Source: Ostreococcus lucimarinus
Lineage: Eukaryota
Assembly: GCA_000092065.1 (NCBI GenBank)
Contig: CP000587.1
Length of the DNA stretch: 64,000 bases
Direction: 5' to 3' (one strand)
Each line of letters starts with the position of its first letter. Position 1 is the first letter of the stretch. The notes below the pieces were generated by a model. The model worked only from the letters and a program-made list of their open reading frames with translations. It ran no database searches and was not told the origin of the DNA. Positions 4,224 to 53,602 of this stretch are shown in pieces. The translations under genes and the position numbers were made by a program.

Positions 4224-4330
4224 GTTGGCTCGCGCGACCGCGCGCGAGCGCGCGCGACGTCGCGCGGCGACGTCTGCGGCGCCGCGCGTCGACGCGCGGT
4301 CGCACGCGCGCGCGCGCGACAATCGCGCGC

Positions 4331-5545
4331 ATGTTCGCGTGCTGCCGCGCGAACGGCGCGATCGACGGCGCGGGCGACGGCGCGAACGCGCGTGCGGCGC
4401 GGAGCGCGATCGCGCGCGCGCGCGCGCGGTCGAACGGGACGCTCGAAGCGCCGGAAGATCGCGCGCGGCATCGACGCGAGCCGAGCGCGACGACGACGAC
4501 GACGACGACGCGCGACGACGAGGACGACGAGGACGACGACGACGACGACGACGCGAGCGTCGATGAGTACGGGTTCGCGATCGATCGCGACGTCGCGCGC
4601 GCGGCGAGCGGGTCGAGCGCGAGCGCGATGGATGAAAAGTTTTGGACGCGCGCGCGCGACGCGCCGGGGACGCTGGCGACGTGCGCGCTCGATCGCGACT
4701 CTGCGCTGAAACGAGCGGTGAGGAAGGGCGTGCCGAGCGATCTGCGATGCGAGGCGTGGTTCGCGTGCAGCGGCGCGCGCGAGCTGAAAAAGATGGGACC
4801 GATGGATTCGTATTACGAAAAATTGTTGGTGATGAAGGTGGATCAAAAAGTCGTCGACCAAATCGAGTTGGACTTGGCGAGGACGTTTCCGGCGAACGAA
4901 AAGTATGAGCGGGGCGAGGGGGGACAGCGAGGGAACGATGTGTTGCGAAGGATGCTGTACGCGTACGCGAGACATAATCGAAAGACGGGGTATTGTCAGG
5001 GAATGAATTATATCGCGGCGTTTTTATGGCTCGTCATGGGCGACGAGGAAAAGGCGTTTTGGACGTTTACCGCTTTGCTCGACGTCGTGCTTCCGAGCGA
5101 TGTGCACGCGAGGGACATCAAGGGGACGATTTCGCAGTACAAGATTTTGCATAAACTACTGCAATCAAACGTCCCAAAGGTGGCGAGGCATCTGAAAGAG
5201 CTCGACGTCGACCTCGTCATGATCGCGAGCAAGTGGTTGTTGTGTCTCTTCGTCGAATCGTTTCCGGCGACGACGGCGGCGCGCGTCCTCGACTGCCTCA
5301 CGTACGAGGGCGAAAAGGTGTGGTTCAGAGTCGCGATCGCGATGATGAAAATGTACGAGCGCGACATATTGGAGTGCGATTCGTTACCAGACGTGATGCT
5401 GTGCCTGAAGCACGCGTTTGCCAACCAAACCGACGCCGACGAATTATTAAAATTCACCTTCGAGCGCGTGTCGCTGTCCAACAAAACCATCGCCGCTCAT
5501 CGCGAGATCGTGGCGGCGGAGATGGAGGAGGAACGGAACAACTAA
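4331..5545 (+). CDS. TBC-domain Rab GTPase-activating protein with acidic/poly-Thr low-complexity N-terminus
   Basis: It carries the arginine-finger motif IELDLARTFP and the glutamine-finger motif YCQGMNYIAAFL of TBC RabGAPs. The ATG at 4331 was verified. The N-terminus contains TTTTTTTRDDEDDEDDDDDDD encoded by a (GAC/GAG)n microsatellite. Confidence 0.8.
   Translation: MFACCRANGAIDGAGDGANARAARSAIARARARSNGTLEAPEDRARHRREPSATTTTTTTRDDEDDEDDDDDDDASVDEYGFAIDRDVARAASGSSASAMDEKFWTRARDAPGTLATCALDRDSALKRAVRKGVPSDLRCEAWFACSGARELKKMGPMDSYYEKLLVMKVDQKVVDQIELDLARTFPANEKYERGEGGQRGNDVLRRMLYAYARHNRKTGYCQGMNYIAAFLWLVMGDEEKAFWTFTALLDVVLPSDVHARDIKGTISQYKILHKLLQSNVPKVARHLKELDVDLVMIASKWLLCLFVESFPATTAARVLDCLTYEGEKVWFRVAIAMMKMYERDILECDSLPDVMLCLKHAFANQTDADELLKFTFERVSLSNKTIAAHREIVAAEMEEERNN
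4489..4552 (+). repeat. (GAC/GAG)n microsatellite inside the RabGAP CDS encoding poly-Thr/poly-Asp
   Basis: cgacgacgacgacgacgacgcgcgacgacgaggacgacgaggacgacgacgacgacgacgacg. Confidence 0.8.
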
Positions 5546-5675: not shown

Positions 5676-8600
5676 ATGTCCGCCGCGCGCGATGGCGACG
5701 CCGCCGCCATCGCCGCGGCGCACGACCGTCTCGCGCGTCATCGCGCTTTGCTCGCGAATCCCGAGCGAGTGATCGCCCCGGGCGCGTTCTGGGACGTCGT
5801 CGCCCTGACGTCCTCGAGCGCGTCCCAAACTCGCGCGTTTCGCGCGCGTTTAGACCACCTCCACGCCCGCGGCGCGCTGCCGGGCGCGCGCGAGCGATAC
5901 GTCGTGATCACCGATCCTCCCGGCGCGCGCATCGGCTCCGGGGGGGCGACGATCGCGGTGGCGAGGGAGTTGAAGTCGTGGTTCGGGGACGCGTGGCGGG
6001 ACAAACGCGTCTTCGCGCTGCACACGGGTGGATACAGCGAACGCGCGCCGCAACACGGGACGCTCGGGAAAGCGTTTGCGGAGGTGCCGATGGATTGTCG
6101 AGGGTGCGGGACGCCGGGGACGATTTTGGAGGCGCAGTTGGTGCAGTTGACGCCGCTGGCGGCGACGCTGCCGCCGGGCGTCTTCGTGTCGTGCGCCGAC
6201 GTCGCGTTGGAGTACGGCGACGTCGAAAAGAGCTTAGACGAGGAAACGCGATCGGCGATGAAGCGTGGCATCACGGCACTCGCACATCCGAGCTCTGTGG
6301 CGATCGGGGAGCAGCACGGAGTGTTCGCGTGCGATGAGGCGGAGGTCAAGGAGCGCGTGCGAGCGATGCGAGCCGGGAGAAAGTTGGCGCCGTTGGATTG
6401 CAGGCGGTGCTTACAGAAGCCCACAGAACAGGAAATGCGCGGCGCCGGGTGTGTGATGCGTGGATACGAAACCGAAGTCGATGACTGGGTGCTGACGGAC
6501 AGTTGCTTTCACATCGGCGTCGAGGCTGTGGAGGCGCTCGTCGAACTCGACGAGCGACGTCGCGACGTTTTGGCGGGGTGCGAAATTTGTGCTTATGGAG
6601 ATTTCATGCAACCACTCGGGAGCGATGCGGATACGTCATACCTGGACCGCATCGATCATCTCGCGAGCGTGACTTCTTCTACACACGCGGAAAGCGAGAC
6701 GAGATTGCGCGATGCGCGCCGCGCCGTTGCAGACGCTTTGCGAGGCCGTCCGCTCATCGTCATTCCGTTGTTTCCGAGTCGATTCATTCACCTTGGCACT
6801 ATTCCAGAGTTTTTGTATCACACGACAAAAGACGTACAGTGCCTGAAGTCGCTTCCAGCGCCAGGGATACCGGTTCACATGGCGTCTTACGTCGCAGACG
6901 ATTTTCATCAACCCGCCGACTCCGTCGTCATGTCGAGTCGCATCGGAAGAGCGTCTTCGGTAGGATCTGGGTCGTGTTTGGTGAACTGTGATATCGGCCG
7001 TGACGTCGTTATCGGCGCAAACTGCGCGATGTACGACGTTCGTCTTGAGGACGGAACGAAAGTGGAAAATGGAACATTCATGTGCACACTTCCCATAACG
7101 CGCGAGCGTTTCTCGAAACGTCACCGCGAATCGGGCGACGATGAAATCGATGACTTTTCGTCATCAATGTCTGACTGTACGTCTGCCGACGACGCCGTCG
7201 AGTTCGTGACCATTGTCATGGCCACCGACGACGAGGTAAAATCACGCACTTCGAGCACACTGTGCGGTGTTCCAGTGCGTGACGCGATTGATCGACTTGA
7301 ATTGGATAGCGGTAGCGTCTGGATGGAAGGCGAGTCGTCCACGACGACGCTCGGTCGTTTTTATAGCGTCCATCAATCTGCCGAGGAATCGTCGCGCGCC
7401 GCGCTGCGAATGGCGCACGTCGTGCGAAGCTCAGAGAATGCCGCTGAGTACGGGCGCTTCGAACGCGACCATCAGCAACAAGTGAGCATTAGCGAAGTGC
7501 TTCGGAGATATGCGAACCATGGCGCTCTCGAAACACACAGACATTCCTTACTGCGTATGGTTTTAAGCTCGACGTTGCGTCGAATGCTAGAAACTGGCCT
7601 GCCAGCGAGCGAATGGAGGCATAGAGCGTTCAACTTAACGTCGCTCGAAAACGAACTCAAAATGGAACGAGGAACAGTCCCCTTCGAAGCAAAAACAATG
7701 CACCTTATTTCGGAGCTACTGGGCGAGACAGAGGCTGAGCGTTTGGATGTCCGCTCGCTTCGACATCGTTTGGACTGTAGCCGAGTGGCGCTCTCTTTAG
7801 CCCTACCGGGCGCGCTCGATGACGCGCGCGCAAATCTTGCGCGCATCCTCACCGAATCATCCACCGTATCGGCGTGCGGTATGCTTGCGAGATCGAATAT
7901 GCCCGTGTGTAGCGTGCGCGTGGCGTATCCAGCGAGATTCAATCTCGCCGGTGGATGGACGGATACCCCGCCGTACTCGCTGGAGCGCCCAGGCGCTGTG
8001 TTGCACGTACCAGGGCTCGTGAATGGCACCAAGCCCATCGTTGCGAAGTTGACCCGCATCGACGACCCCGTCGTACGTCTCGTGATGCGAGACGATGTAT
8101 CGGGCGAAGAAATACGCGAAGACGTTCTTCATTATGGTGATCTCCTGCCGAACCGATATTCCGACCCGATGACGCCGTTTGCTCTCCACAAAGCCGTCCT
8201 CGTGCAGTTTTGGTTCAGGGAAATTATTGAAATTTCGTTGGAATTCGGTTGCAATTTCATCGAACCTGCGTTGCATGGAAAACGGTTGATTGCGATCGAC
8301 AAGCCTGGCGTAGAGATACGAACGGAAGTAAATCTCCCAAAAGGCTCTGGTCTCGGCACGAGTAGTATCCTCGCCTTAGCGATGCTGCACGCGATGTACG
8401 ACTTCACATACGGTACGCGCTTGAGGCCTCGGTTTGAAGAAGAAGATCGAATCGAACTTACTGCGGATGTACAGTGGACCGATGAAAATGGGAAAGTGCT
8501 CGATGTCGAAGATGACCATCGCGCGTCGCCAAAGGAAGCTCTCAAGCTGTCTGACATCGTGAACTGTGTGCTCGTGGTTGAGCAGATGATCACGACGGGT

Positions 8601-9242
8601 GGTGGGTGGCAAGACCAAGTCGGTGGCGCGTTGAATGGTCTTCGCCTAAGTCTTTCGAAACCTAGTGATCGCAGTTTCTCCCCTGATTATGACTACTTCC
8701 CCAAGTACACCTACCGTCTGTGTGAGATGGACGCGCCCTGCGCGCGTCTCTTGAACTCGCGCTTTGCGTGCGTGTTCACCGGGACGTGTCGATTGGCGAA
8801 GACCGTCTGTGATTCTGTCGTCACAACGTGGCAAAGACGTGATATTGGCGTTGAGCGTGCTTTACAACAGTGTGCTGACTTGGCAACGCAAATGTTTGAG
8901 GTATTCCAGGCGATCTCCAAGTCTTCGCGCGAAAGCGCCGCGACGCCAAACGTATCAGATTGTCGGGAAGAATACCTGATCTCGCGTCTCGGTGCGCTCC
9001 TCGAAGAACACAAACGCGTGCAACAATCGCTGTGGTCATCAATTGAAAGTCCCACTATACGTGCCATTTACGACGCGCTCGAGCCTCTGAGTTACGGCTC
9101 TTTCATTTGCGGCGCCGGGTCAGGCGGACACGTGATCGCATTTCTGAAACCATCGGCCACGCGCGAGCGCGTCCACGATGCCGTGCGCGCATGTACCGGC
9201 GCCCCCGACGCGCGCGTTGTGGATGTAGAATTAATTCTGTAA
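5676..9242 (+). CDS. FKGP: Bifunctional L-fucokinase / GDP-L-fucose pyrophosphorylase (plant FKGP-type)
   Basis: A 1188-aa ORF with a verified ATG. Its N-terminal half resembles the fucose-1-phosphate guanylyltransferase region. Its C-terminal half is a GHMP kinase with the ATP motif PKGSGLGTSSILALAML and C-terminal FICGAGSGGHVIAF. The size and domain order match Arabidopsis FKGP. Confidence 0.85.
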   Translation: MSAARDGDAAAIAAAHDRLARHRALLANPERVIAPGAFWDVVALTSSSASQTRAFRARLDHLHARGALPGARERYVVITDPPGARIGSGGATIAVARELKSWFGDAWRDKRVFALHTGGYSERAPQHGTLGKAFAEVPMDCRGCGTPGTILEAQLVQLTPLAATLPPGVFVSCADVALEYGDVEKSLDEETRSAMKRGITALAHPSSVAIGEQHGVFACDEAEVKERVRAMRAGRKLAPLDCRRCLQKPTEQEMRGAGCVMRGYETEVDDWVLTDSCFHIGVEAVEALVELDERRRDVLAGCEICAYGDFMQPLGSDADTSYLDRIDHLASVTSSTHAESETRLRDARRAVADALRGRPLIVIPLFPSRFIHLGTIPEFLYHTTKDVQCLKSLPAPGIPVHMASYVADDFHQPADSVVMSSRIGRASSVGSGSCLVNCDIGRDVVIGANCAMYDVRLEDGTKVENGTFMCTLPITRERFSKRHRESGDDEIDDFSSSMSDCTSADDAVEFVTIVMATDDEVKSRTSSTLCGVPVRDAIDRLELDSGSVWMEGESSTTTLGRFYSVHQSAEESSRAALRMAHVVRSSENAAEYGRFERDHQQQVSISEVLRRYANHGALETHRHSLLRMVLSSTLRRMLETGLPASEWRHRAFNLTSLENELKMERGTVPFEAKTMHLISELLGETEAERLDVRSLRHRLDCSRVALSLALPGALDDARANLARILTESSTVSACGMLARSNMPVCSVRVAYPARFNLAGGWTDTPPYSLERPGAVLHVPGLVNGTKPIVAKLTRIDDPVVRLVMRDDVSGEEIREDVLHYGDLLPNRYSDPMTPFALHKAVLVQFWFREIIEISLEFGCNFIEPALHGKRLIAIDKPGVEIRTEVNLPKGSGLGTSSILALAMLHAMYDFTYGTRLRPRFEEEDRIELTADVQWTDENGKVLDVEDDHRASPKEALKLSDIVNCVLVVEQMITTGGGWQDQVGGALNGLRLSLSKPSDRSFSPDYDYFPKYTYRLCEMDAPCARLLNSRFACVFTGTCRLAKTVCDSVVTTWQRRDIGVERALQQCADLATQMFEVFQAISKSSRESAATPNVSDCREEYLISRLGALLEEHKRVQQSLWSSIESPTIRAIYDALEPLSYGSFICGAGSGGHVIAFLKPSATRERVHDAVRACTGAPDARVVDVELIL

Positions 9243-9351
9243 GTTGTGTATTGATAGATTGCACCGTTGCGAATCCTTCACACCCCCTCCGCGCCGACGC
9301 AAGTCGACACAATCTCGACCTCGGTGCGAGTCACACAGCGCGCGCACCTCA

Positions 9352-10252
9352 ATGTCCGACCCGCATAAAGCCGTAACTTTTGCCGTGTGGACCCTCGCCC
9401 TGGCAATGACTCACATCTTTTTCCAGCGCAGGCACGCACCCGACAAAGATAAGACTCGTCCGCGCACGCGAACGCAAACCGCAAAGCTTGAGGAGGAGGA
9501 GAGTCGCGCTCGGGACGCGCAGATGCAACAGGTGCTAGACAGCTGGACGTGCCAGCACTGTCAACACGAGAACCGGAGCCTGCGGAGCACGCGCGCGCGA
9601 CGAAGCACTTTGGAATGTTCGAACTGTCGGAACGATTTCATCTTTTGCGTCTCGCCGCGCAAGAGCGCGCACAAGGCTCTGTTGGATGAACGCCCGGTGC
9701 AGGTGCGCGAGACGAGAAACGGCGACGAGAAACGCGAGACTGACCGGGACGCGCGGGACGATCGATGCACAGTGCCGCGCGCCGTATCGAGTGGGGAATG
9801 ATACGCTGTCGCCACATTTTACCGTGAAATTGAACGAATTCTCTCTGCCTGGAACGTCATTGTACGAACGATTTTACAAGAATGTGAAGAACGCCGATCC
9901 GCAATCCATTCGGCTCGCCTTCCATGGAACATCGTTCGCGGCGGCGAAGCTGATACTGAAAAACGGTATGAGTCCATCACGACGAATCAACACACAAGGC
10001 GACTGGTTTACACTGGACATCAACTATGCGCTCACGAGAAGTATCTGTCGTGAGGACCACAGCGCGCAATGGGGTGGTACACCCAAGGACGAAGAGCCAG
10101 ACGCGTACTCGAAGAGCGTTGTGGTGATCTGCTTCGCCGTCTACATGCCAAAAACGATCTACATCGGGGAACACATCGTCTGCACATGCGAGAAACATAG
10201 TCTTCCGATCTCAATGCTCGAGTTTCCGCGAGAGCCTTACGATCCCGCGTAA
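9352..10252 (+). CDS. Small zinc-ribbon (RanBP2-like C2C2) plus PARP-like ADP-ribosyltransferase catalytic-domain protein; exon1 9352..9702, intron 9703..9772, exon2 9773..10252
   Basis: Two overlapping track ORFs (9244..9801 and 9686..10252, different frames) are joined in phase 0 by a 70-nt intron (CAG|GTGCGC...CTGAC...CACAG|TGC). Exon 1 has WTCQHCQHEN...LECSNCRND, a Cys4 ribbon. Exon 2 has the PARP signature IRLAFHGTSFAAAKLILKNGMSP (H), GDWFTLDINYA (Y), SVVVICFAVYMPKTIYIGEHIVCT...PISMLEF (E), matching tankyrase/PARP beta-strand order. The ATG at 9352 was verified. The start is otherwise uncertain. Confidence 0.5.
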
Positions 10253-10385
10253 ATGAATGACTTTGCAAGTAGGAACGTCTTGTAGTGAAACAGAGAAACG
10301 TTGGTTTGCATCGAGGGTTGAATCTTGATTATTACGTCATGCGCGCGTGTATGATGCGCTCCTAGAATGAATAACGCGCAACTAT

Positions 10386-12485
10386 TTACGCGGTCGTGGC
10401 AGGTGCCGCATCTTCCGGGGAACCCTCGTCTTCGAAACAGCACGTCAAGCTTCGCGTGGCGCGTTCGCGCGCGAGCACTTCGAGCAGCGCGGTCAGCTTG
10501 TGCTCACCGTGGACCTTGTTATCACGCGTGCGCACGTTCACCGTTTCGTTCGCTTTTTCGCTTTCGCCGCACACCAAGATATAGTTGAACTGATCGAGCT
10601 GCGCCTCGCGAACCTTCTTTTGCATCTTACGATCCGTGACGTCGACTTCCGCGAAATGACCGGCCTTGCGGAGTTGGCGCTTGACCTCGTAGCAGTAGTC
10701 TCTCGAGGCTTCAGAGATCGGCACAATCATGACTTGTTTTGGCGACAACCAATACGGCCACTTACCCGCAAAGTGCTCGGTCAAAATCGCGAACATACGC
10801 TCGACAGAACCGAGGATAGCTCTGTGAATGATGATCGGCCTCACCGACGAGTTGTTTTCGTCGACGTACGACAGGTCAAATCGAATCGGAAGCTGAAAGT
10901 CGAGCTGGACCGTCGCACACTGGAAGCGACGCTTGAGCGCATCGAAGACAGTGATGTCAATCTTCGGACCGTAGAAGGCGCCGTCACCTTCGTTCAGCTT
11001 CCACTCTCTGCCGCTTCGGTCCAACGCAGACTTGAGCGCCGCCTCCGCCTTGTCCCACACCTCCAACTCACCCAAGTATCCCTCTGGACGCGTCGATAGC
11101 TTCATCTCGTACGTGAGACCAAACACTTCGTACACATCATCTAAGAACTGCAAGAAACCGCTCAACTCCTGTTCCATTTGATCCTCACGGCAGAAGATGT
11201 GCGCGTCGTCTTGCTGGAAGCGGCGAACGCGCGTTAAACCGTGAAGCGCACCCGAGAACTCGTTTCGGTGCAGCACACCGAAATCAGCCACACGCATGGG
11301 GAGTTCACGGTACGTTCTGTGTCGATGCGCGAACATGACGCAGTGACCCGGGCAGTTCATCGGCTTCAGACCAAACTCTTCCTTTTCGACGTTGAAGCTG
11401 AACATGTTTTCCTTGTAGTGCGCCGCGTGACCGGACGTCTTCCAGAGGTCAAAGTTGTAAATATTCGGCGTGATGACTTCGTCATACTCGTATTCCCAAT
11501 ACTTTTCTCGAATAAATTGGACCAAGTTGTTGTAGATGCGCGCGCCGTGCTTTTGGAAAAAACACGAGCCCGGGGAGAGATGGTGGAAAAAGAACAGCTC
11601 TTGGTTCAAGCCAATGGTGCGGTGATCGCGTTTCTTCGCTTCTTCGATGCGCGTGGTGTATTCCTTCATGAGTTTGTCGCTCGGGAAAGTCACGGCGTAC
11701 ACGCGCACGAGCGGGTCCTTGGTGACGTCCGCGCGCCAGTGGGCTCGCGAGCACTGGTTCACGCTGACGCTCTTCAACCACGCGGTGTCCGGCAAGTGCG
11801 GACCGCGGCACAGATCCACCATCGGCCCGCAGCGATAGCACGAAATCGTCGCGTCTTCGGGCAAGTTGGAAATCAACTCAATTTTGAACTTGTTCTCTTC
11901 GAACATCTCCAACGCCTCGGCGCGGCTGACGACGATGCGTTGAAATTCTTGTTTTTCTTTGATGATCTTTTCCATGCGCCCCTTGATGATTTCCGTGTCT
12001 TCCGGCGTCAGCGTGCGCTCGCCCAAGTAGCAATCGTAGTAGAAACCCTCCTCGATCGCCGGTCCGATGGTCAAATCCGCCCCGTACTCCAACTCCAACG
12101 CCTCCCCCAAGACGTGCGCGCTCGAGTGCCAATAACACTCCTTCCCCTCTTCGTCGTCGAAAGTAAACAACGCCAGCGCGCAGTCCCCCTCCAACGGTCG
12201 TCGCATGTCCCAAAACTCCCCATCGACCTTCGCCACGAGCGCGCTCTGCGCCAGCTTCTTGTGTATCCCCAACGCGATGTCGAACGGCGTCGTCGCGAAT
12301 CGCGTCCCATCCTTTTGCGCGCCGTCCGGCAGGGTCACTTTAATCCCTTCCCCCCGCGCCTTCGCCTCTTCGATCCGCGTCAGCTCCCGCGCGCGATACT
12401 TATCGAACAAATCGATCCGGTGCGCGTAATACGGCGACTTCTCTCGCGCGTGATCCGCGTTCGTCGGCGTCGGCGCGTCCGCCAT
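10386..12485 (-). CDS. TARS: Threonyl-tRNA synthetase (class II, cytosolic type)
   Basis: A 699-aa ORF with an N-terminal TGS domain and second-site editing domain. The class II core has FYYDCYLGER.., HRAILGSVERMFAILTEHFAGKWPYWLSP and an anticodon-binding C-terminus. The ATG was verified and sits inside a CCATGG palindrome. Confidence 0.95.
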   Translation of the reverse strand: MADAPTPTNADHAREKSPYYAHRIDLFDKYRARELTRIEEAKARGEGIKVTLPDGAQKDGTRFATTPFDIALGIHKKLAQSALVAKVDGEFWDMRRPLEGDCALALFTFDDEEGKECYWHSSAHVLGEALELEYGADLTIGPAIEEGFYYDCYLGERTLTPEDTEIIKGRMEKIIKEKQEFQRIVVSRAEALEMFEENKFKIELISNLPEDATISCYRCGPMVDLCRGPHLPDTAWLKSVSVNQCSRAHWRADVTKDPLVRVYAVTFPSDKLMKEYTTRIEEAKKRDHRTIGLNQELFFFHHLSPGSCFFQKHGARIYNNLVQFIREKYWEYEYDEVITPNIYNFDLWKTSGHAAHYKENMFSFNVEKEEFGLKPMNCPGHCVMFAHRHRTYRELPMRVADFGVLHRNEFSGALHGLTRVRRFQQDDAHIFCREDQMEQELSGFLQFLDDVYEVFGLTYEMKLSTRPEGYLGELEVWDKAEAALKSALDRSGREWKLNEGDGAFYGPKIDITVFDALKRRFQCATVQLDFQLPIRFDLSYVDENNSSVRPIIIHRAILGSVERMFAILTEHFAGKWPYWLSPKQVMIVPISEASRDYCYEVKRQLRKAGHFAEVDVTDRKMQKKVREAQLDQFNYILVCGESEKANETVNVRTRDNKVHGEHKLTALLEVLARERATRSLTCCFEDEGSPEDAAPATTA

Positions 12486-13980
12486 GGCGTCCCGCTCGAT
12501 CGCCGTCCCGCGCTTCCGCGCGTCGCGTCCCGACGTCGCCGTATCGCGCGCCCGTTCGCTCGCGTTCGGCTCTCAGCGCCTCCGCGTGCCCTCGCGCGCG
12601 GTTCGCGACGCGCGCGACCGTCGCGCGCGTCGTCGTCGCGCTCTGCCGCGGTCGCCTTTCGCGCGCGCGACCCTACGCCCGGGTCGTCTTTTTCGCCCCC
12701 GTTTGGCGACGCGCGCGTCGACCCCCGTTTGGCGACGTCCACCGACCGACGTCGACGCGCCGGCGCGCGCGCGCGCGACGACGCGACGCGCGAGGGACGG
12801 CGCGACTCGAGACGCGCGCGCGATGCGGGCGACGCCGACGACGCACGCGATGGAACGCGCGCGACGCGCGCGCGCGCCGACGCGCGGCGCGGGACGGCGG
12901 ATGATTGCGACGCCCCGACGCCGACGCGCGACGAACGACGACGGCGACGCGACGACGACGACGACGACGACGGCGGCGGAGGCGTCGTACGAGGAGGACG
13001 AGGCGGAACCGCCGCGACGGCGAGGGACGACGACGACGTTTCCGTTGGCGTGCCCGGTGAGTCTGAAGGCGCTGCGCGGCGACGGCGTCGAGCCGACGAG
13101 CGGGCTGAGGTACGAGGAGCGCGAGGGGCGATGGGATCTGACCGTGGGCGCGGCGGAGAACGCGCGGTCGGGGGCGCGGGTCGGGTCGCTCGTGGACCTG
13201 GCGCGCGAGGCGCTGCCGAACGAGTTGAAGGGGTTGCTGCCGACGAGCGGGTACTTTGGGACGGCGACGTTCGAGACGCCGCAGGTGGCGTTCGCGTACG
13301 AGCGAGGGTGGCGCGATAGCTTTAAGCGCGCTGGGTTTCCGGGGCCGGATGAGGAGGCGCGGTTGGCCGTGGACGCGCTCGGGGAGTTCGCGAAGGGCGG
13401 CATCGTCGTCGACGCGTCGTGCGGCAGCGGGTTGTTTACGAGACGGTTTTTGAAGACGTACAAGGGTCGTTCAAAGGCGTACAAGGGCGTGGTGGCGCTC
13501 GACTACTCCGACGCCATGCTGCGACAAGCGAAGCAATACATGGAGGATGAAAACTTACTCGGCGACGCGGACGTGTGCTTCGTGCGCGCGGACATCGCGC
13601 GGTTACCGTTTCCAGAAGGCTCGCTGGACGGCGTGCACGCGGGCGCCGCCATCCACTGCTGGCCGGATGCCAAGACGGGCGTGGCCGAGATCGCGCGCGT
13701 GCTTAAACCAGGCGCGACGTTCTGTGGAACGACGTTCATGAATCCGCAAGTGCCGTTCTTCGACGAGGACCAGCAGGCCATTTTCGACAACGCCGTTCGA
13801 GAATTCTCGGGCACGGTGAACGCCGAGCGCGGGTTCAGATGGTGGTCCAAGAAGGAACTCCGAGACCTGTGCACCGAATGCGGACTCGTCGATTTTAAGT
13901 GCGAGATTCGCAATCAGTTTATCTTTTACAGCGCGAAGAAGCGAACCGTGGACGACGTCGACGCGGTCGAGAAAGCGTAG
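12484..13980 (+). CDS. Class I SAM-dependent methyltransferase with N-terminal zinc-ribbon (LACPV/C..C) motif, plastoglobule-type (At1g78140/At2g41040-like); true start probably downstream
   Basis: SAM motif I is VVDASCGSGLFTRRF and post-I is VALDYSDAML. The acidic D in ...CFVRADIARLPF and FPLACPVSLKAL precede the MT fold, as in the plant family. The first about 110-190 aa are Arg-rich and overlap the ThrRS start. Likely real starts are near 12823 (MRATPTT) or later. Confidence 0.7.
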   Translation: MASRSIAVPRFRASRPDVAVSRARSLAFGSQRLRVPSRAVRDARDRRARRRRALPRSPFARATLRPGRLFRPRLATRASTPVWRRPPTDVDAPARARATTRRARDGATRDARAMRATPTTHAMERARRARAPTRGAGRRMIATPRRRRATNDDGDATTTTTTTAAEASYEEDEAEPPRRRGTTTTFPLACPVSLKALRGDGVEPTSGLRYEEREGRWDLTVGAAENARSGARVGSLVDLAREALPNELKGLLPTSGYFGTATFETPQVAFAYERGWRDSFKRAGFPGPDEEARLAVDALGEFAKGGIVVDASCGSGLFTRRFLKTYKGRSKAYKGVVALDYSDAMLRQAKQYMEDENLLGDADVCFVRADIARLPFPEGSLDGVHAGAAIHCWPDAKTGVAEIARVLKPGATFCGTTFMNPQVPFFDEDQQAIFDNAVREFSGTVNAERGFRWWSKKELRDLCTECGLVDFKCEIRNQFIFYSAKKRTVDDVDAVEKA

Positions 13981-53438: not shown

Positions 53439-53602
53439 TGCGGTTAACCGGGATCGAACCGGTGACCTTCGGATCGCTCTCCGACGTTCGTCGGGGAAGG
53501 GGAAGTGGGATCTTTATGATCTCAGTCGTGTTGATGTCGTGTTTGAGCTTCGAGAGCTGTACGTTATGAGACCGACGCTCTAACCAACTGAGCCATAACC
53601 GC
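53439..53602 (-). tRNA. trnM-CAU: Elongator tRNA-Met (anticodon CAT) with an ~88-nt intron at the canonical 37/38 position
   Basis: The minus strand reads GCGGTTATGGCTCAGTTGGTTAGAGCGTCGGTCTCATA[intron ACGTACAGCTCTCG...GGAGAGCG]ATCCGAAGGTCACCGGTTCGATCCCGGTTAACCGCA. It has a 7-bp acceptor stem, D-arm GCTC/GAGC, anticodon stem TCGGT/TCCGA with a U31.U39 pair as in human elongator tRNA-Met, anticodon CAT, variable loop AGGTC, T-arm ACCGG-TTCGATC-CCGGT and discriminator A. G1:C72 with a TTCGATC T-loop marks it as elongator rather than initiator. Confidence 0.8.

Follow-up and report, generated by a model that had tools for sequence, protein, structure and literature searches.

Does Ostreococcus lucimarinus encode a PARP-type domain? 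In Table 1 of Citarelli et al. 2010, this alga and Micromonas pusilla are placed among the eukaryotes without identifiable PARP genes (PMC2964712), and the same authors argue from such cases for repeated loss of PARPs and for their dispensability (PMC2964712). The question is raised by a stretch of 64,000 nucleotides from O. lucimarinus contig CP000587.1 (assembly GCA_000092065.1), hereafter the window, in which two open reading frames (ORFs) overlap between the genes for a fucokinase/GDP-fucose pyrophosphorylase (FKGP) and a threonyl-tRNA synthetase (ThrRS). We read them, with a probability of roughly 80% for the identity of gene and domain, as a two-exon nuclear gene of an Ostreococcus-like Mamiellales alga whose product carries a divergent PARP-type domain.

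One gene from two overlapping reading frames

The ORFs at 9244..9801 and 9686..10252, both on the plus strand, overlap in different frames. Excision of 70 nt (9703..9772) fuses them into one product of 276 amino acids and a stop, or 277 codons, with the following parts.

9352..9702, plus strand: exon 1, 117 codons, encoding a hydrophobic segment, a charged helix, a Cys4 zinc ribbon and an SPRKxAHKxLLDxRPVQ linker
9703..9772, plus strand: intron of 70 nt in phase 0, with a GTGCGC donor and a CAG acceptor
9740..9744, plus strand: putative branch site CTGAC (inside ACTGAC), its branch A 29 nt upstream of the 3' splice site
9773..10252, plus strand: exon 2, 159 codons followed by the stop codon at 10250..10252

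The predicted splice junction, 9702|9773, reads CCGGTGCAG|TGCCGCGCG. A preliminary description of this DNA had already proposed that the two ORFs make one spliced gene, and the comparison with orthologous loci set out below bears this out. The donor, CTGAC element, acceptor and phase that it listed are all present at 9703..9772. Its size of 277 aa holds in so far as there is one coherent product; the real length is 276 aa, 277 being the codon count with the stop included.

The gene was reconstructed in three further lineages (contigs L002, L004 and L008). Exon 1 aligns end to end with the three spliced orthologues, the amino-acid identity of exon 2 among orthologues is 70-75%, and the spliced products of the four syntenic loci can be aligned along their entire length. 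In these four loci, introns of 70 (window), 69 (L002), 85 and 140 nt interrupt the coding sequence at the identical phase-0 site, between RP-V-Q and [C/I]-R-[A/T]-P-Y-R-V-G-N-D; all are bounded by GT and AG, and in all of them ACTGAC precedes the acceptor by 22-29 nt. The lengths leave remainders of 1, 0, 1 and 2 on division by three, and splicing is therefore needed to hold the frame. Conservation stops exactly at the donor and restarts exactly at the acceptor in the four species. Among the orthologues, differences at codon positions 1/2/3 number 256/211/376 in exon 1 and 252/128/523 in exon 2, so that divergence in both exons is biased to third codon positions. The intron has the marks of a spliceosomal one (GT-AG ends, a branch site, a conserved position, free length and sequence), and comparative genomics, which establishes the gene structure, suggests that it would be spliced in vivo.

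The strongest independent point for this predicted structure is a Mamiellaceae orthologue, P0013 (L011, 5001..5888), which is intronless: a single uninterrupted ORF of 295 aa spans zinc ribbon and C-terminal domain alike, and reads across the intron position as RPLQNVYPFRIAGD. Its locus adjoins ThrRS and the same UbiE-like methyltransferase that is found near the spliced genes; its upstream neighbours differ, and FKGP is not among them. Likewise, in six ORF fragments from the N-terminal half in other, more distant lineages (P0010, P0012, P0021, P0022, P0023 and P0025), conservation ends after RP[VI]Q and a Val (GTN) codon follows.

The exact boundaries also come from the comparison. While 23 different GT–AG pairs would join both frames free of stops, only donors 9703 and 9697, each with acceptor 9772, leave the exon 2 start CRAPYR intact, and of these two only donor 9703 also retains the conserved V-Q. 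The splice signals themselves were dropped as evidence because the pattern is not above chance: a loose GT…CTGAC…YAG occurs 15 times on the plus strand of the window, with 16.7 expected. Support for the intron is thus comparative. Pairwise intron identities from global alignment with cheap gaps were not used, being uninformative for short GC-rich sequences.

The same intron accounts for how the gene appears in protein catalogues. A homologue search yielded no more than ORF halves and a single read-through of 291 aa. In L002 the intron (4322..4390, 69 nt) is in frame and has no stops, so that a prokaryote-style gene caller yields the 291-aa read-through, P0001, with 23 spurious residues; for other lineages the metagenome catalogue has only half-proteins that extend into translated intron. 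This serves as a reminder that such catalogues may hold a gene of this kind only as halves or, in one lineage, as a read-through.

Homology and predicted fold of the exon 2 domain

Most of exon 2 is occupied by one domain.

9782..10234, plus strand: divergent PARP-like ADP-ribosyltransferase domain, residues 121-271

A search of 1.84 billion representative proteins with a HMMER profile of the orthologues only retrieved 113 proteins at E<=1e-3, which form three tiers: orthologue fragments; full-length proteins of Mamiellaceae type, which have this zinc ribbon as well and carry FHGT / GGDWFT / NYA / IGDHVV / HHxLPLF; and about 60 proteins of protists, marked by NPHSxPG…FHGT…GEYF…HQLPLF. Pfam PARP (PF00644) is passed by 61 of the 69 relatives scanned, at best with E 4.7e-36, and these PARP-positive relatives match ZAP/PARP13, PARP12, PARP10, PARP1, PARP3, PARP15 and tankyrase in the PDB. 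Aligned by hhalign, 12 Pfam-negative family members and 20 PARP-positive relatives match over the whole domain (columns 14-172 of the family, 10-131 of the relatives) with a probability of 99.8% and E 1.7e-30. Sequence comparison thus demonstrates, by way of intermediates, that the domain is homologous along its whole length to genuine PARP domains, a link that is strong but indirect.

Outside Mamiellales, the closest sequence relatives are the protist PARP-like proteins (NPHSxPG…FHGT…GLDPxRRxGQxYGxGEYF), with 30% identity over 115 columns in the 99.8% hhalign match. They share with the algal family an LPG-x-LY-x-RF lead-in, FHGT, a G(D/E)(W/Y)F strand and an HxLPL C-terminal strand. Unlike the algal family, they pass Pfam PARP, have the triad Tyr and carry I/V/L at the catalytic column, and they are without the long insert that the algal proteins have between a helix and the AVxM strand. 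Their architectures are varied and often larger, including WWE, RING, UBC and tandem repeats. As a side observation, tandem PARP-like domains occur in P0033 (571 aa, four domains) and P0039 (1042 aa, repeated units), P0030 is an internal duplication, and in other distant relatives a PARP-like domain stands beside WWE, RING, UBC, UIM or Deltex-C modules.

The predicted fold points the same way. An AlphaFold2 (AF2) model from a 51-row alignment has a mean pLDDT of 86.2 and a pTM of 0.72, with pLDDT about 95 across residues 130–270. In a Foldseek search of this model against the PDB, the top 50 matches are all PARP catalytic domains, among 347 matches at E≤1e-3. The modelled ADP-ribosyltransferase (ART) fold is closest to PARP-clade structures. 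Its only low-confidence part (pLDDT 61-78) is the family insert at window 10070..10140 (about residues 217-232), which separates the long helix (200-217) from the AV-x-M strand. This insert is variable, acidic or polar, from 15 to about 70 residues long, and missing from the PARP-positive relatives.

Several results weigh against the reading of this locus as a genuine gene with a PARP-type domain. Exon 2 misses the threshold of Pfam PARP, scoring 12.9 bits (E 0.08) against a cut-off of 26.7, and other Pfam-negative members, among them the Mamiellaceae orthologues, reach 11.4-15.1 bits. Direct searches of Pfam and the PDB with the spliced protein, with each exon or with an orthologue profile gave sub-threshold matches or none, and in the PDB neither the protein nor the orthologue profile had a match. 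With the family profile and intermediates, Tpt1 is matched at E 0.012 and PARP10 at E 0.07, through the HGT motif only; direct PDB sequence matches overall lie at E 0.012-0.09 and are confined to that motif. The 51-row alignment included PARP-positive relatives, and the fold match is accordingly not fully independent of the sequence link; a model from a 7-row alignment of orthologues alone was unusable (pLDDT 39.9) and was discarded. Furthermore, several of the top structural neighbours (ZAP, RCD1, TASOR) are inactive PARP-like domains. As to the gene itself, no family member comes from UniRef, nr, MMETSP or EukProt, protein collections yielded no transcript-derived member of the family, and exact look-up of the four spliced products gave no match in a 15-billion-protein collection that is without the reference Ostreococcus and Micromonas genomes. 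The departures at the N-terminus and the active site described below belong on the same side of the balance.

Standard searches and gene callers appear to miss the gene: its Pfam score is sub-threshold, an intron splits it, and the annotated proteomes searched do not contain it. All family members (29/29) come from metagenomes or an unannotated assembly, are unnamed or named "hypothetical protein", and have no precomputed Pfam domain.

N-terminal half, active site and rival explanations

Two features precede the domain.

9370..9426, plus strand: hydrophobic segment, residues 7-25, AVTFAVWTLALAMTHIFFQ, followed by basic residues; candidate signal-anchor/transmembrane helix
9544..9639, plus strand: Cys4 zinc ribbon, residues 65-96, W65-x-C67-x2-C70-x3-N-x14-C89-x2-C92

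The conserved hydrophobic segment was absent from the earlier domain list. Averaged over 19 residues (7-25), its Kyte-Doolittle value is 1.49 for the window gene and 1.62-1.72 for orthologues, which makes it only borderline as a predicted transmembrane helix. It is followed by a basic flank, QRRH…KDKTRPRTR; AF2 places a helix at residues 4-24, and eight Ostreococcus-like lineages retain a ..AM.HIFF motif. The Mamiellaceae orthologues have neither the hydrophobic segment nor this motif and carry a long basic N-terminus instead (in P0013, a long Lys/Arg/Ser-rich segment). Hence a membrane anchor is plausible and would be lineage-specific.

The ribbon stands as first described (WTCQHC...CSNC): W65, C67, C70, C89 and C92 are conserved in 12/12 aligned lineages, and AF2 predicts a beta-hairpin at 64-66/73-75. 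Pfam gives only sub-threshold zinc-finger or ribbon matches (E 0.013-1.4), and the conserved Cys4 pattern suggests that zinc would be bound. RanBP2-type fingers follow W-x-C-x2-4-C-x3-N-x6-C-x2-C. The first half of the algal ribbon resembles those of the RanBP2/NZF group (W-x-C-x2-C-x3-N, with a weak match to Vps36-NZF-N at E 0.052). The algal spacer to the second C-x2-C is, however, 14 residues as against about 6, so that only the first knuckle is similar, and Pfam PF00641 (RanBP2) has no match to the algal protein at E<=10. Mamiellaceae orthologues have CGHxH…CxxCxC instead. As had been stated, the spliced protein shows no WGR, BRCT or macro domain, here by a Pfam scan.

Three sites in exon 2 correspond to the catalytic triad of PARPs.

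9923..9925, plus strand: codon of His168 in the F-H-G-T motif, counterpart of the triad His that binds NAD in PARPs
10004..10006, plus strand: codon of Trp195 in G-D-W-F-T, at the triad-Tyr column (G-E-Y-F in relatives)
10166..10174, plus strand: Gly249-Glu250-His251 on the catalytic strand, with Glu250 or His251 at the position of the PARP catalytic Glu

The preliminary description had named the motifs LAFHGTS, INYA and IGEHIVC, which like those of the ribbon are all found in the sequence, and had read them as an H-Y-E order. The His of that order stands. His168-Gly169-Thr170 is invariant across the family and aligns with FHGT of the PARP-positive relatives and HGT of Tpt1 (PDB alignments), which by sequence makes His168 the counterpart of PARP1 H862 in H-G-[ST]. 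The Tyr does not: according to the profile alignment it is Trp195, and not the Tyr of INYA, that occupies the triad column. Trp195 replaces the triad Tyr (PARP1 Y896) and is invariant in the 12-sequence family alignment, as are F196, Y202, G249 and H251, while position 250 is always acidic (E or D). The profile alignment sets Ile208-Cys209 opposite the Y-C of the relatives and gives no support for a match of the invariant Tyr202 of INYA to the second PARP Tyr (PARP1 Y907).

The Glu of GEHIV, taken earlier as the E of that order, may stand one residue off. An acidic residue is kept at position 250 throughout the family, as Asp in some members (P0013 has Asp in its G-(E/D)-H motif). The hhalign alignment is ungapped from Gly249-Glu250-His251 to the conserved Pro262, a Pro that the PARP-positive relatives carry as well. 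In tankyrase-2, whose sequence was confirmed, the Glu of the catalytic strand, which is the catalytic residue, precedes the Pro of A-Y-P by 11 residues. The ZAP chain has a matching strand–turn–Y-P pattern, SVFVIFQKDQVYP, and PARP10 presumably has the same spacing between Glu position and Pro. Counting 11 back from Pro262 gives His251, so that the profile alignment places His251 rather than Glu250 in the catalytic-Glu column; activity can therefore not be assumed. A hairpin turn one residue longer, and only that, would allow Glu250 to be the catalytic residue; the likeness of E-H-I-V-C to E-Y-I-V-Y and the AF2 strand at 251-254 are compatible with that register. In the PARP-positive relatives this column holds I/V/L, as is typical of mono-transferases.

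Given these features, the most likely working model is as follows. The protein would consist of a hydrophobic helix, a Cys4 zinc ribbon, a conserved linker helix and a divergent PARP-type ADP-ribosyltransferase domain. The N-terminal helix with its basic residues would probably serve as a signal-anchor in a membrane, with the remainder of the protein in the cytosol, where the domain would bind NAD+ and act as a mono-ADP-ribosyltransferase at the membrane surface, the ribbon aiding recognition of a target. We put the odds that the domain is an active transferase at about even. A bolder version holds that this is an active enzyme of a new configuration, with His-Trp and an adjacent acidic-His pair in place of H-Y-E or H-Y-Φ, membrane-tethered in Ostreococcus-like algae and the only PARP-type enzyme of a lineage published as PARP-free. 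As a whole, that version is tentative and somewhat unlikely; were the configuration active, an unusual acceptor would be possible, such as a nucleic-acid end or a non-acidic side chain.

Alternatively, gene and fold may be as described and the domain a catalytically dead pseudo-PARP like ZAP/PARP13, plant RCD1/SRO and TASOR, in other words a binding or scaffolding module placed by ribbon and anchor. The change of the triad Tyr to Trp would fit such a module, as would a His that appears to be the strict equivalent of the catalytic Glu and a Pfam PARP score far under the threshold. However, the NAD-contacting His-Gly-Thr is invariant, Trp is an aromatic residue still able to stack, and an acidic residue always lies beside the invariant His on the catalytic strand. 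In addition, as far as the sequence alone can tell, the residues that both algal families have kept lie together at the motifs expected to form the NAD pocket and not in a surface patch. We consider a dead domain rather improbable on present evidence.

Far less probable is that exon 2 encodes an RNA 2'-phosphotransferase of Tpt1/KptA type, which had been named beside PARP as the family to be told apart by profile. Both direct Pfam scores are sub-threshold (PTS_2-RNA, PF01885: E 0.29, below the 26-bit threshold), the best direct PDB matches of the family profile are archaeal and bacterial Tpt1 chains (E 0.012-0.07, about 34 residues around HGT), and 4/69 relatives also touch PF01885. Yet this match is limited to a motif common to all H-type ART folds: Tpt1/KptA and the algal domain share H-G-T and then a helix ending in G-(I/L/M)-x-P-x-x-R, the sole stretch with a direct PDB sequence match. 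The N-terminal RNA lobe of Tpt1 carries an Arg-His-Arg-Arg tetrad. The algal protein has a zinc ribbon and linker N-terminal to HGT, not this lobe, and thus shows neither the 26-bit PF01885 score nor the two-lobe architecture of Tpt1/KptA; moreover, hhalign ties the whole domain to PARP-positive proteins. The Tpt1 reading was rejected on fold, architecture and profile evidence, fold and hhalign favouring PARP.

Equally remote is an unspliced locus of two separate products, a decayed pseudogene or chance ORFs, for which speak the missing transcript evidence, splice signals at chance frequency and the long spurious ORFs common in GC-rich DNA (such as 11241..13319), and against which stand the third-position-biased conservation of both ORF parts, its exact bounds at donor and acceptor in four species despite different intron lengths, the conserved branch-site hexamer and the intronless orthologue with both parts in one ORF.

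Relatives, occurrence and neighbouring genes

The PARP-type domain of the spliced gene can be set beside well-known members of the class. With the clade-3-type mono-ADP-ribosyltransferase PARPs (human PARP10, PARP12, PARP14/15, ZAP/PARP13) and tankyrase it shares F-H-G-T, a G-x-aromatic-F strand and a C-terminal hydrophobic strand-turn-x-L-P-strand, at an identity of about 12-18%. It differs from them in having Trp for the triad Tyr and Gly-(Glu/Asp)-His where these have Ile/Leu/Val or Glu. The algal protein is without WWE, macro, CCCH, ankyrin or SAM domains and has the Cys4 ribbon and N-terminal hydrophobic segment instead. As a small, possibly membrane-anchored PARP, it may have a functional analogue in PARP16 (ARTD15), the tail-anchored mono-ADP-ribosyltransferase of the endoplasmic reticulum (ER). 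PARP16, however, has a helix anchor at its C-terminus, a helical regulatory domain at its N-terminus and the triad H-Y-Y, as against the borderline N-terminal segment and zinc ribbon of the algal protein; the likeness is limited to the common fold, and no further sequence relationship was shown.

On sequence grounds, the predicted protein is new in three respects: a divergent, lineage-restricted PARP-type domain, an architecture joining a hydrophobic N-terminus and a Cys4 ribbon to it, and a variant triad. Kept in synteny in at least four Ostreococcus-like lineages and present in Mamiellaceae, the gene suggests that minimal-genome algae have retained one very divergent PARP-type domain. It would offer a very small, genetically tractable setting for the role of a lone PARP-like enzyme, as well as a natural variant of the PARP catalytic triad. 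A sequence scan of viral contigs found no prasinovirus or other viral relative, and fold matches in BFVD are only generic giant-virus and phage PARP-like domains.

The gene sits as tightly between its neighbours as the preliminary description had put it. To its left the FKGP ORF (1188 aa) ends at 9242, and to its right the ThrRS ORF, on the minus strand, ends at 10386; both identities are backed by Pfam on orthologous loci. The orthologue contigs share the order FKGP, zinc-ribbon/PARP-like gene and, on the opposite strand, ThrRS, and those that reach further (L002, L004 and L008) also carry the UbiE-like methyltransferase beyond ThrRS. The ThrRS of the window is 86% identical to that of Ostreococcus tauri and 79% to that of Mantoniella antarctica, the ThrRS of L002 is 90% identical to that of O. 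tauri, and the one at the P0013 locus is 86% identical to that of Mantoniella. The gene of the window is therefore the Ostreococcus-like Mamiellales form, and the intronless form that of Mamiellaceae. Across the Ostreococcus-like loci (window 5676..13980; L002, L004 and L008) the kept microsynteny runs from RabGAP-TBC through FKGP, the zinc-ribbon/PARP-like gene and ThrRS (minus) to the UbiE-like methyltransferase, with intergenic spacers of only about 110-135 bp on either side of the zinc-ribbon/PARP-like gene.

Antisense to ThrRS and extending into the next gene lies the ORF at 11241..13319 (plus strand, 692 aa, GTG start, rich in Arg, Ala and Asp), which looks like a spurious ORF of GC-rich DNA. 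Finally, unlike ARAGORN, which reports no tRNA anywhere in the 64-kb window, Rfam places one at 53439..53602 on the minus strand with 54 bits; its model positions 1-71 are spread across 164 nt, with an implied intron of about 90 nt.

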